A DNA stretch of 49,379 nucleotides from Escherichia coli (GCF_003334315.1 NZ_QOWR01000034.1), one strand, 5' to 3'; positions 10,965 through 27,787 are shown, counted from the stretch's first letter. Notes: a model not told the origin generated them from the sequence alone. A program made the numbers and translations.

Positions 10965-11486
10965 ATGGCTATTATTCTCGGCATTGATCCGGGTTCGCGC
11001 GTGACCGGCTACGGCGTCATCCGCCAGGTAGGTAGGCAACTGTCCTACCTGGGTAGCGGATGCATCCGCACCAAAGTGGATGATTTACCGTCTCGTCTGA
11101 AACTCATCTATGCGGGCGTGACGGAAATCATCACCCAGTTCCAGCCTGATTATTTCGCCATTGAACAAGTCTTTATGGCAAAGAACGCTGACTCAGCCCT
11201 GAAACTGGGCCAGGCGCGCGGCGTGGCGATTGTGGCGGCGGTGAATCAGGAGTTGCCAGTATTTGAATACGCGGCACGTCAGGTAAAGCAAACGGTGGTA
11301 GGTATTGGCAGTGCCGAAAAAAGCCAGGTGCAGCATATGGTCCGCACCTTGCTGAAACTGCCCGCTAATCCACAGGCGGATGCCGCCGATGCGCTGGCGA
11401 TTGCTATCACCCACTGCCACGTTAGTCAGAATGCGATGCAGATGAGCGAATCGCGGCTGAACCTGGCGAGAGGGCGACTGCGTTAA
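10965..11486 (+). CDS. ruvC: Holliday junction resolvase RuvC
   Basis: 173 aa from the second ATG ([17 protein letters not shown]...), the RNase-H-fold resolvase N-terminus. Confidence 0.95.
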
Positions 11487-11487
11487 G

Positions 11488-12090
11488 TTATACCGCCTCG
11501 GTCAGTTCCGGCTGAGGCGTTTCCACTCCCTCCGCATGAATCAACACCAAACCCGGATGATGCCACAAACTGGCTGGCGTGACGGTTTTACGCTCCCACG
11601 GAATAGAACCCAGGAACCAGAATTTCCAGAAAGTGAGTTTTGCATTCGGATTGCTATTTAACAATTCTCCAAACGTCTCTATTTCACCCACCGGAATACA
11701 TAGCGCTTCTTTATAAATATCAAAAACAAATTTTGAACAGAACTGGCGTGAAGATTCGTATTTAAAACCGGTGTGGTAAAGTTTGCGTAGCCGGGAGGGA
11801 ACCTGTTCAACAATTCGTTGTTTTTGTCGTTCTGTCAGCCCAGCGTCTAATCGCTTTATAGCATAGCGTTGATTAGACGAACGTTTAATAAAACGAGATA
11901 GCGTGGTGATGGTTGAAAGGGGAACCCGGCTTTCTGCAACCAGGAAGTCTTCACCGTTATGACCGATAATGATCCCGACGTGATTACTCCAGCAATTTGA
12001 TGCAGCTGATATTTGACCAAATAAGGCAGCACCTATACATGTAAAGACGATATCTCCAATTTCATATTCAGCAGGGTAATTAATATTCAC
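11488..12090 (-). CDS. yebB: DUF830 / permuted papain-like (NlpC/P60-related) protein YebB
   Basis: Start set to GTG at 12090 (VNINYPAEY...), giving the recalled 200 aa; the track extends 33 codons into AT-rich upstream sequence. The gene is visibly more AT-rich than its neighbours. Confidence 0.75.
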
Positions 12091-12295
12091 GTTGTCATTC
12101 CATTGAAATAGATACAAATATACGTAATAGCATAAAAAATTTATTTTTTCAGGAGGCGCAATGTATATTTTTATTACGCATTTCTTCACTGAATATGTAA
12201 TATTAAAATATTTGCTTCCAATATAACCTGTAGAATAAATTATACTGTGCCATTTTTCAGTTCATCGAGACACCTCGCAAGTTTTCTTCATCCTT

Positions 12296-12315
12296 CGCTG
12301 GATATCTATCCAGCA
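12296..12315 (+). promoter_or_regulatory. LexA operator (SOS box) of ruvAB
   Basis: CGCTGGATATCTATCCAGCA dyad about 50 nt upstream of ruvA; matches the recalled ruvA SOS box. Confidence 0.65.
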
Positions 12316-12364
12316 TTTTTTTATCATACAGCATTATCTTTGATTCATTACGCAGGAGCGTCAT

Positions 12365-12976
12365 GTGATAGGCAGACTCAGAGGCATCATCATTGAAAAA
12401 CAACCCCCGCTGGTGTTAATTGAAGTGGGCGGCGTAGGCTATGAAGTGCATATGCCGATGACCTGTTTTTATGAACTCCCTGAAGCGGGTCAGGAAGCGA
12501 TCGTTTTCACCCACTTTGTGGTGCGTGAAGACGCGCAACTGCTGTACGGTTTTAACAATAAACAAGAGCGCACATTGTTCAAAGAGTTGATCAAAACCAA
12601 CGGCGTCGGCCCGAAGTTGGCGCTGGCGATCCTCTCCGGAATGTCAGCGCAGCAGTTCGTTAATGCCGTTGAGCGTGAAGAAGTGGGGGCACTGGTGAAA
12701 CTGCCGGGTATTGGCAAAAAAACCGCCGAACGCTTGATTGTTGAAATGAAAGACCGATTTAAAGGTTTGCATGGCGATCTCTTTACGCCAGCCGCCGACC
12801 TGGTACTCACGTCTCCTGCCAGCCCGGCGACCGACGATGCTGAACAAGAAGCGGTTGCCGCGCTGGTGGCGCTGGGCTATAAACCACAAGAAGCAAGCCG
12901 CATGGTGAGCAAAATCGCTCGCCCTGACGCCAGCAGTGAAACTTTAATTCGCGAAGCCCTACGCGCCGCGTTATGA
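12365..12976 (+). CDS. ruvA: Holliday junction branch migration complex subunit RuvA
   Basis: 203-aa ORF; LexA operator upstream; ruvB follows 8 nt downstream. Confidence 0.97.
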
Positions 12977-12981
12977 GGTAA

Positions 12982-13995
<1,014 letters not shown>

Positions 13996-13999
13996 GTCG

Positions 14000-14320
14000 G
14001 ATTGGTCGCTCGCGCCGCATCCGAAATTGGCAGTGTGCCTGATGCGACGCTATTCGCGTCTTATCCGGCCTACCAGAGATAGCGAACCGTAGCTCGGATA
14101 AGGCGCTCGCGACGCATCCGACATTGGCAGTGTGCCTGATGCGACGCTATTCGCGTCTTATCCGGCCTACGAGAGATAGCGAACCGTAGGTCAGATAAGG
14201 CGCTCGCACCGCATCCGACATTGGCAGTGTGCCTGATGCGACGCTGTTCGCGTCTTATCAGGCCAGCCAGAGATAGCGAACCGTAGGTCGGATAAGGCGC
14301 TCGCGCCGCATCCGACAAAT
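14000..14320. repeat. Tandem BIME cluster: three 97-bp units made of alternating REP palindromes
   Basis: GCATCCGA recurs at 14017, 14114, 14211 and 14308 (exact 97-bp period); each unit holds GCCTGATGCGACGCT...GCGTCTTATC(C/A)GGCC and CGGATAAGGCGCTCGCG REP motifs. Confidence 0.85.
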
Positions 14321-27750: not shown

Positions 27751-27770
27751 TACTGTATAAAATCACAGTT
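27751..27770 (+). promoter_or_regulatory. LexA operator (SOS box) of yebG
   Basis: TACTGTATAAAATCACAGTT fits CTGT-N8-ACAG with the AT-rich centre, 18 nt upstream of the yebG ATG. Confidence 0.8.
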
Positions 27771-27787
27771 ATTATGAGAGGCTGCAA

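Follow-up and report, generated by a model that had tools for sequence, protein, structure and literature searches.

A low-GC segment between ruvC and the ruvAB operator of Escherichia coli read as the reduced remnant of an old islet encoding YebB, a probable cytoplasmic acyl enzyme

Why does an AT-rich gene of opposite orientation lie between the Holliday-junction genes ruvC and ruvAB in Escherichia coli, and does this position tell anything of what the gene does? The window analyzed here is a stretch of 49,379 nucleotides of E. coli DNA (GCF_003334315.1 NZ_QOWR01000034.1), in which the RefSeq gene order, essentially identical to the K-12-type locus, is aspS-nudB-yebC-ruvC on the plus strand, yebB on the minus strand, yobI on the plus strand, ruvA-ruvB on the plus strand, and znuB on the minus strand. 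The intervening gene, yebB, is presumably the 'orf-23' of the early-1990s ruvC papers. A first-pass annotation made from the sequence had placed the end of ruvC at 11486, the start of ruvA at 12365, and a minus-strand gene between them, in agreement with the ORF list and RefSeq:

10965-11486, plus strand: ruvC coding sequence (ORF list and RefSeq), left flank of the insertion, with its stop codon TAA at 11484-11486
11488-12090, minus strand: yebB coding sequence, 200 amino acids, with a GTG start at 12090 (RefSeq, exactly the same coordinates)
12365-12976, plus strand: ruvA coding sequence with a GTG start (ORF list and RefSeq), right flank of the insertion

The non-ATG start suspected for yebB is correct: GTG at 12090 is common to every Escherichia lineage, the homologous start codon is ATG in Superficieibacter, Citrobacter, Kluyvera, Salmonella, and Klebsiella, and a conserved GGAA-type Shine-Dalgarno remnant lies 7-10 nt upstream of it. 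A longer ORF of 233 amino acids from 12189 was rejected because it is not conserved in other species and starts upstream of the yebB promoter reported by SELEX. By megablast, 11300-12500 finds a match in each of the 5426 complete E. coli genomes, and in 5385 the match spans 80% or more of the query; at least 99% of E. coli genomes have a full-length yebB, and alleles disrupted by IS1 or truncated also occur.

The gene and the spacer upstream of it had been described as visibly more AT-rich than the ruv flanks, and the computed base composition bears this out. The GC content of yebB is 0.439 compared with a mean of 0.516 (sd 0.019) for 41 ORFs of the window (z = -3.9), and its GC3 of 0.393 falls below that of the lowest other ORF in the window (0.429). 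With a GC content of 0.31, the spacer at 12091-12364 is the minimum among the 18 intergenic regions of at least 80 bp in the window. Gene and spacer together (11488-12364; GC 0.399) belong to the bottom 0.5% of 877-bp windows, and the minimum of the entire window falls inside them. In every genus, the yebB copies in the ruv gap have a GC content 3-13 points under that of their flanks, while yebB of Providencia and Proteus equals its neighbors at 0.35-0.40, a pattern that fits a low-GC donor.

To place yebB in other genomes, one genome per species was scanned with a YebB alignment, which yielded only 91 relatives among 100,044 species; its position relative to the ruv genes was determined by tblastn with the flanking proteins, and the content of the ruvC-ruvA gap was typed in ~30 genomes. 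yebB occupies the gap in ~16 Enterobacteriaceae species and Salmonella enterica; these hosts comprise Escherichia species, Superficieibacter, Pseudocitrobacter, Kluyvera, one Citrobacter, one 'Enterobacter', Klebsiella spallanzanii, and an uncultured Enterobacteriaceae genome besides S. enterica. It lies away from the ruv genes in Proteus, Providencia, Budvicia, Pragia, Limnobaculum, and Leminorella, as do the second-type yebB copies of C. amalonaticus, C. braakii, and S. diarizonae. The comparison of this junction across Enterobacterales that the first-pass annotation had proposed thus finds yebB filling the gap only in some Enterobacteriaceae, and ruvC and ruvA contiguous elsewhere, as that annotation had stated for many bacteria, namely in K. 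pneumoniae, E. hormaechei, Citrobacter-like genomes, and four other Enterobacterales families.

These empty sites define the boundaries of the insertion. The order aspS-nudB-yebC-ruvC-ruvA-ruvB is found in Xenorhabdus, Erwinia, Rahnella, Edwardsiella, Klebsiella pneumoniae, Enterobacter hormaechei, and several Citrobacter-like genomes, with ruvC-ruvA spacers of 79-130 bp in seven genomes from five families; in one further empty-site genome, the spacer reaches 203 bp owing to an ERIC-like element. From left to right, the empty spacer consists of the ruvC stop codon, ~12 nt, GGCTGGATATCTATCCAGCC followed by a T-run, a -10 element, a ribosome-binding site, and the GTG of ruvA, so that the operator in these species is a 9-bp stem ~12 nt past the ruvC stop. 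This entire ancestral spacer aligns with about 12288-12364 of the window, and homology across genera restarts only at 12278-12298. Because 12298-12364 matches the whole ancestral spacer and nothing leftward does, the inserted DNA is approximately 11488-12297:

11488-12297: inserted segment of ~810 bp with yebB, yobI, their promoters, and a LexA-like box; missing at empty sites and with the lowest GC content in the window
12298-12364, plus strand: ancestral ruvAB regulatory spacer, identified by cross-genus conservation, with the operator, the -10 element TATCAT at 12322-12327, and the Shine-Dalgarno sequence AGGAG at 12354-12358
12298-12313 (feature 12297-12314), plus strand: LexA operator CTGGATATCTATCCAG, a palindrome followed by T7, at the left end of the ancestral ruvC-ruvA spacer

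The regulatory spacer is 76-97% identical across genera, whether the gap is filled or empty, and beside the insertion the ruvAB promoter and operator are intact. Because the operator is a palindrome followed by seven T residues, it doubles as a terminator-like hairpin, and it was called as such with a fold z of -5.1; a promoter-like sequence, TGGATA-17-TATCAT at 12299-12327, overlaps it. The claim that yebB splits ruvC from ruvAB therefore holds as far as position is concerned, and fails for the operon: the operator hairpin and T-run already parted ruvC from ruvAB at the empty sites, and no operon was split.

If the insertion separated ruvC from the hairpin that followed it, what lies there now? 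Within the last codons of yebB, a second structure immediately follows ruvC:

11494-11519, plus strand: 10-bp stem-loop, 8 nt past the ruvC stop and followed by GUUUCC, supported by folding and covariation

The stem-loop has a folding energy of -18.5 kcal/mol and is more stable than expected on the plus strand (z = -4.1), but only slightly so on the minus strand (z = -1.5). Across 13 species, 96.9% of the alignment cells are paired and both sides have changed in 6/10 pairs, values reached by 0/500 shuffles, and slid registers fall to 28-44% paired. At one stem position, G-U is the most frequent pair, and it is possible in ruvC-sense RNA only. On the protein side, residues 192-200 of YebB, the tail encoded by the stem-loop, are disordered in the AlphaFold2 model, and this tail peptide is missing from yebB copies that do not adjoin ruvC. 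The structure is probably a replacement terminator or a 3' stabilizer of the yebC-ruvC transcript that is read through by yebB translation. Because the U-tract (GUUUCC) is weak and the element did not pass a simple terminator scan, a terminator role is one that we infer. An Rfam scan of 11300-12500 returned one chance lncRNA match only.

The ORFs of the inserted segment are yebB and yobI alone. In the first-pass annotation, 12091-12364 had been taken as an upstream region of 274 bp; the length is right, and the description is incomplete, as this interval holds yobI as well as the ancestral ruvAB regulatory spacer. Also missed were the divergent promoters, the covarying stem-loop after ruvC, and a LexA-like box in the inserted DNA:

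12092-12118, plus strand: predicted sigma-70 promoter of yobI, TTGTCA-15-TACAAA (SELEX hexamers, placed by eye), overlapping the yebB start region
12124-12152, minus strand: predicted sigma-70 promoter of yebB, CTGAAA-17-TATTAC (SELEX hexamers, placed in the sequence)
12161-12226, plus strand: yobI, a 21-amino-acid small protein (RefSeq 'stress response small protein YobI'), with the Shine-Dalgarno sequence AGGAGG at 12151-12156
12243-12262, plus strand: candidate LexA-like box TACTGTGCCATTTTTCAGTT, inside the inserted DNA downstream of yobI, with one mismatch to CTGT-N8-ACAG

The hexamers of both promoters come from a genomic SELEX table (Shimada 2014, PMC3946193), and their positions rest on SELEX and consensus matching rather than on mapped transcription start sites. 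As placed, the -35 element of the yebB promoter overlaps the yobI Shine-Dalgarno sequence and the elements of both divergent promoters interleave; the predicted yebB promoter implies a leader of ~27 nt before the GTG at 12090. The LexA operator at 12298-12313 overlaps the ruvAB promoter and not the predicted yebB promoter at 12124-12152; it faces ruvA and lies ~145 bp upstream of the predicted yebB promoter and ~207 bp from the yebB GTG. The candidate box at 12243-12262 is degenerate in two other Escherichia loci. A permissive search for LexA patterns gave 202 matches against 175 expected, an uninformative statistic that served only to place individual boxes.

Judged from its sequence distribution, yobI is apparently of recent origin within the leftover island DNA and restricted to E. 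coli proper. It is annotated in all sampled E. coli genomes at 96-99.9% identity; its start codon is ATA in Escherichia sp. MOD1-EC7003, a 7-bp deletion takes out its Shine-Dalgarno sequence and start in a divergent 'E. coli' lineage, and no nucleotide similarity to yobI was found outside Escherichia. We also considered yobI as the 5' relic of a lost gap gene of one membrane-protein family (c53). In tblastn and Smith-Waterman comparisons against shuffles, the similarity to the N-terminal transmembrane segment of this family is weak (p ~0.025, 0.07, 0.16, and 0.74 for four members), and nucleotide similarity is absent; the idea was dropped, as the match is not significant after multiple testing.

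The gap is not a site for yebB only. Beside yebB it carries a variable set of recurring gene families: a membrane protein of ~220 amino acids, present alone without yebB in K. oxytoca; a membrane protein of ~228 amino acids in E. albertii, Salmonella, and Citrobacter; a secreted protein of ~274 amino acids; a PstS-like protein; a DUF4034 protein in Salmonella and P. vendiensis; and, in Superficieibacter electus, an uncharacterized and probably exported protein of 293 amino acids. In the usual E. coli form, yebB and ~200 bp of AT-rich DNA are left. About 20 E. coli genomes, AST85 among them, carry a bigger cassette with a mosaic yebB, the 3' half of which is ~95% identical to the common allele and the 5' half ~75%. 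In a neighbor-joining tree without support values, Enterobacteriaceae, Morganellaceae, and Budviciaceae form one YebB clade each, and the AST85 and E1V33 alleles of E. coli group with Pseudocitrobacter vendiensis, which shows that at least some exchange took place. The idea that the K-12 form is a recent deletion derivative of an AST85-type cassette was rejected because the ETPQPE-type tail and the stem-loop are common to Salmonella, Klebsiella spallanzanii, Citrobacter sp. FP75, Kluyvera, and Pseudocitrobacter.

Within Escherichia, dS of yebB is 0.28, 0.41, and 0.85 compared with 0.23-0.61 for ruvC/ruvA in the same genome pairs. yebB thus tracks its flanks, having diverged together with them, and is old, and its dN/dS of 0.03-0.12 shows a working gene. 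The suggestion of an old insertion is upheld by this agreement with the flanks and by the presence of the gene at the same site in Escherichia, Salmonella, Kluyvera, Pseudocitrobacter, and others. The segment does not look like a classical genomic island or mobile element, its foreign marks being low GC and phyletic pattern only. No direct or inverted repeats and no target-site duplication were found at its boundaries, and no integrase, tRNA, or repeat was found at the locus as a trace of an insertion mechanism. A phage collection gave no match to the segment, and a plasmid collection matched only mislabeled chromosomes or chromids marked non-mobilizable. Across 80 loci, no gene is partnered with yebB beyond single genera or families; YebB and five gap-cargo proteins matched no PADLOC defense model, and the five cargo proteins matched no NCBIfam model. 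The patchy distribution in Enterobacteriaceae may reflect either one gain with many losses or repeated transfer by recombination through conserved ruvC/ruvA flanks. We read the locus as an old multi-gene islet with lineage-specific decay and some cassette exchange through the nearly invariant ruvC/ruvA flanks.

Turning to the protein, the family assigned by the first-pass annotation, a permuted papain-like protein related to NlpC/P60 (DUF830), proved accurate. YebB matches PF05708 (Peptidase_C92, formerly DUF830) with an i-Evalue of 2.2e-45 over model positions 3-165 of 166, and the NCBIfam YebB equivalog NF008547 with 407.6 bits at a cut-off of 227. The family is small: of 1.84 billion representatives searched, 658 clusters match at E <= 1e-3. 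Alignment to YiiX (...SH..., ...FEA..., ...QYCSE...) locates four catalytic residues:

11980-11982, minus strand: YebB codon His37
11932-11934, minus strand: YebB codon Glu53
11776-11778, minus strand: YebB codon Tyr105
11737-11739, minus strand: YebB codon Cys118

His37 and Glu53 lie N-terminal to Cys118, as in a circularly permuted enzyme, and Tyr105 sits 13 residues ahead of Cys118, like Tyr115 and Cys128 of YiiX. All four residues are invariant in 41 homologs down to 38% identity, and 35 columns are invariant over the same range. The AlphaFold2 model is confident, with a pLDDT of 92.4, and the papain-like alpha+beta fold is superposable on a solved family member. The domain begins at residue ~10, which leaves no room for a signal peptide, and YebB has neither a signal peptide nor a lipobox; being leaderless, it is probably cytoplasmic. 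Some distant relatives have lipoprotein or secretion leaders. YebB departs from canonical NlpC/P60 cell-wall hydrolases in both their Cys-then-His order and their export.

A full-text literature search for yebB found no functional study. Members of the YaeF/YiiX family have a Cys/His/Glu triad with an additional Tyr and a narrow hydrophobic S1 pocket, a fatty acid is bound in YiiX, and lipid-amide amidase or related acyl chemistry has been proposed (PMC3142127); later papers still term the bacterial members of the family poorly understood. By family resemblance, Cys118 of YebB would be activated by His37, itself oriented by Glu53, and would attack the acyl amide or ester of a lipid-like substrate via an acyl-thioester intermediate, with Tyr105 stabilizing the acyl carbonyl. 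YebB is a functional, leaderless, and hence probably cytoplasmic enzyme of the circularly permuted NlpC/P60 (YaeF/YiiX, Peptidase_C92) family. Most likely, by analogy, it would act as an acyl-thioester-forming hydrolase or acyltransferase on a lipid-like amide or ester, the lipid substrate being extrapolated from the ligand of a single YiiX crystal and from the only distantly related LRAT/PLAAT enzymes.

Could the filled site be the older one? If yebB were ancestral at this position in Enterobacterales, contiguous ruvC-ruvA would be the outcome of repeated clean deletions, and it is true that the YebB tree roughly follows family boundaries, that gap deletions do happen, and that the cargo varies. 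However, the short spacer, with its hairpin ~12 nt past ruvC, is the same in all seven empty-site genomes, which represent five families, and independent deletions would not restore an identical junction. As yebB also lies away from ruv in Morganellaceae and Budviciaceae and the gap copies are always GC-poorer than their flanks, we regard this scenario as very improbable and already largely refuted. Still less can be said for the opposite view of a recent, E. coli-specific horizontal acquisition, that is, a young genomic island. The strong GC deficit would suit it, as would the different, larger Pseudocitrobacter-related cassette of AST85 and E1V33, but the segment is present in every complete E. 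coli genome and full-length in 5385 of the 5426, occupies the same site in E. albertii, Salmonella, Kluyvera, and others with dS equal to the flanks, and comes without mobility genes, repeats, or phage or true plasmid copies; a young island is therefore extremely unlikely. We find it just as hard to credit that yebB no longer functions and is decaying, kept solely for the ruvC stem-loop encoded by its 3' end. A weak GTG start and Shine-Dalgarno sequence, low GC3, IS1-disrupted or truncated alleles, and the loss of neighboring cargo genes would all be in line with decay, whereas a dN/dS of 0.03-0.12 over long divergence, the catalytic tetrad and 35 columns invariant to 38% identity, and full-length alleles in at least 99% of E. 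coli genomes are not.

The remaining alternatives concern function. A cell-wall endopeptidase or amidase acting on peptidoglycan, like the canonical NlpC/P60 enzymes, appears unlikely, since YebB is permuted and has no signal peptide or lipobox, the narrow hydrophobic S1 pocket of the closest structures was judged unfit for a peptide and YiiX binds a fatty acid (PMC3142127), and the nearest characterized folds are lipid acyltransferases or phospholipases (PLAAT4, RID), TseH being annotated merely as a cysteine hydrolase. A tie of yebB or yobI to the SOS response or Holliday-junction processing, with retention beside ruvAB for co-regulation, is suggested by the adjacency to LexA-regulated ruvAB, by the candidate LexA-like box between yobI and the main operator, and by the RefSeq name of yobI as a stress-response small protein. 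Against it, the copies of Morganellaceae, Budviciaceae, several Citrobacter, and Salmonella diarizonae lie far from ruv, the gap of K. oxytoca has kept other cargo but lacks yebB, the additional box is degenerate elsewhere in Escherichia, and the main operator faces ruvA, so that such a tie is highly doubtful. The peptidoglycan or DNA-damage phenotypes for which a yebB deletion was to be tested would accordingly be unlikely, because there is no export signal, the pocket of the family is of lipid type, and orthologs lie away from ruv in other families.

Altogether, the best explanation is that an old islet, acquired horizontally, survives in reduced form as 11488-12297, that YebB is a cytoplasmic acyl enzyme, and that neither is linked to ruv function, a reading that we hold with a probability of about 0.8. 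In this model, an ancestor of some of the Enterobacteriaceae acquired the islet, which entered past the ruvC stop codon and ahead of the LexA-operator hairpin that precedes ruvA. It may have brought, or may have evolved, a new stem-loop for ruvC transcripts, which would be translated as the disordered C-terminal tail of YebB. In E. coli proper, the leftover AT-rich DNA would carry the young yobI, the transcript of which might end at the LexA-box hairpin. The position of yebB beside the ruv genes would then be an accident of insertion and not a functional link. It is also tempting, though tentative, to speculate that the gap is a long-lived cassette-exchange hotspot, in which the original cargo (yebB, the two membrane-protein families, the secreted protein, and the DUF4034 protein) might have formed one envelope-lipid or lipoprotein remodeling module that decayed in E. 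coli to a lone cytoplasmic acyl-hydrolase, with a ruvC terminator translated as a protein tail and a yobI arising de novo from island DNA and ending at the LexA operator/terminator as by-products.

The earlier reading was correct, and the locus is ordinary, annotated, and already known: gene order, the yebB family, yobI, and LexA control of ruvAB are in the standard annotation. The additions made here are incremental: the exact limits of the insertion, a comparison with empty sites, a cassette that varies, a stem-loop overlapping the yebB tail, and the youth of yobI. They provide a clean and dated case in which a small foreign islet settled precisely between a stop codon and an operator/terminator hairpin and left both flanking transcription units undisturbed, and they caution that the place of yebB beside SOS genes tells nothing of its function. 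As one of three E. coli enzymes of YaeF/YiiX type, YebB is a better candidate for cytoplasmic acyl-amide, ester, or thioester substrates than for peptidoglycan. Two annotation curiosities emerge, a coding tail that overlaps a covarying stem-loop serving a gene on the opposite strand and a small gene, yobI, that is apparently restricted to E. coli proper; the practical value of the findings is modest.

Comparison with known systems places YebB apart from its characterized relatives. YiiX is only ~26-28% identical to YebB and belongs to a separate NCBIfam equivalog, in which YebB scores 79.5 bits against the YiiX cut-off of 216, and YebB differs from it by starting directly at the domain without an N-terminal leader. 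Identity drops to 16-18% for BcPPNE (BCE_A0238, PDB 3KW0), the YaeF/YiiX-like enzyme of Bacillus cereus. The LRAT/PLAAT (H-RAS-like suppressor) phospholipase A/acyltransferases are distant from YebB and form separate clades, and the same is true of other permuted NlpC/P60 proteins, namely the T6SS effector TseH, listed as a cysteine hydrolase, the lipid-targeting Tox-Act1, the MARTX RID domain, and LnsA of S. aureus. Unlike both of these groups, YebB comes without a toxin, immunity, or secretion-system context, a membrane anchor, or a taxon-wide partner gene. Finally, we note that the published ruv region of E. coli K-12, with yebC-ruvC, yebB, yobI, and LexA-regulated ruvAB, has the same genes in the same order and at the same coordinates as the locus described here, and that the two sequences are without difference.

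Our analysis points to a second role for the LexA operator of ruvAB. In this operator, G-C pairs lengthen the palindrome and a T-run follows directly, and the same combination is found at seven comparison loci from other genomes (L085, L088-L090, L093, L095 and L100). In empty-site genomes, whose ruvC-ruvA spacer lacks the yebB insertion, the operator lies ~12 nt 3' of the ruvC stop codon, and this operator-after-ruvC arrangement is kept across five Enterobacterales families. Because the extended palindrome and T-run stand so close behind ruvC in empty sites, the operator probably also acts as the yebC-ruvC terminator.

Features of the window and of a comparison locus
12161-12226, plus strand: yobI, annotated small-protein gene, 21 aa
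12243-12262: second LexA-like box (predicted), TACTGTGCCATTTTTCAGTT, within the inserted segment, after yobI and before the main operator
12297-12314: ruvAB LexA operator, palindrome with T-run
13990-14317: GC-rich ruvB-znuB spacer, tandem array of REP/BIME-type palindromic units
27751-27771: perfect LexA box (sequence match), TACTGTATAAAATCACAGTTA
4390-8058 of L002 (E. coli AST85): alternative ruvC-ruvA gap cassette, also present in L043 (Escherichia sp. E1V33)

The second LexA-like box is degenerate in other Escherichia lineages. Downstream of the perfect box by 18 nt, a short ORF (MAVEVKYVVIREGEEKMSF...) opens with ATG, and we take this ORF to be the SOS gene yebG. The inserted DNA also carries yobI, which is preceded by a strong ribosome-binding site (AGGAGG) and was not mentioned in the first-pass annotation. 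Escherichia sp. MOD1-EC7003 and one divergent 'E. coli' lineage lack either the start codon or the ribosome-binding site of yobI, so the gene looks limited to E. coli proper. The record titled Escherichia coli SCPM-O-B-8794 (L005) differs from the window by a dS of 0.41-0.51 for ruvC, ruvA and yebB; this far exceeds the usual divergence within E. coli, so the genome probably represents a cryptic Escherichia clade that was deposited under the name E. coli.

The content of the ruvC-ruvA gap varies among genomes. In E. coli ET245 (NZ_CP100978.1), an IS1B transposase is annotated under the yebB-locus match and the alignment falls into two pieces; its yebB is a naturally disrupted allele. In ~20 of the 5426 E. 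coli genomes, the same gap holds the larger alternative cassette, in which a mosaic yebB is accompanied by genes for a PstS-family membrane protein, a secreted protein of 274 aa and a second membrane protein of 181 aa; no family assignment was obtained for the cassette proteins of L002 and L043. In a Citrobacter-like genome (L097, 4060-4190), ~125 bp are inserted 3' of the LexA box in an otherwise empty spacer, and by eye this insertion looks like an ERIC/IRU repeat. In the window, the array of REP/BIME-type units between ruvB and znuB has a period of 97, with 3.4 copies and 91% matches.
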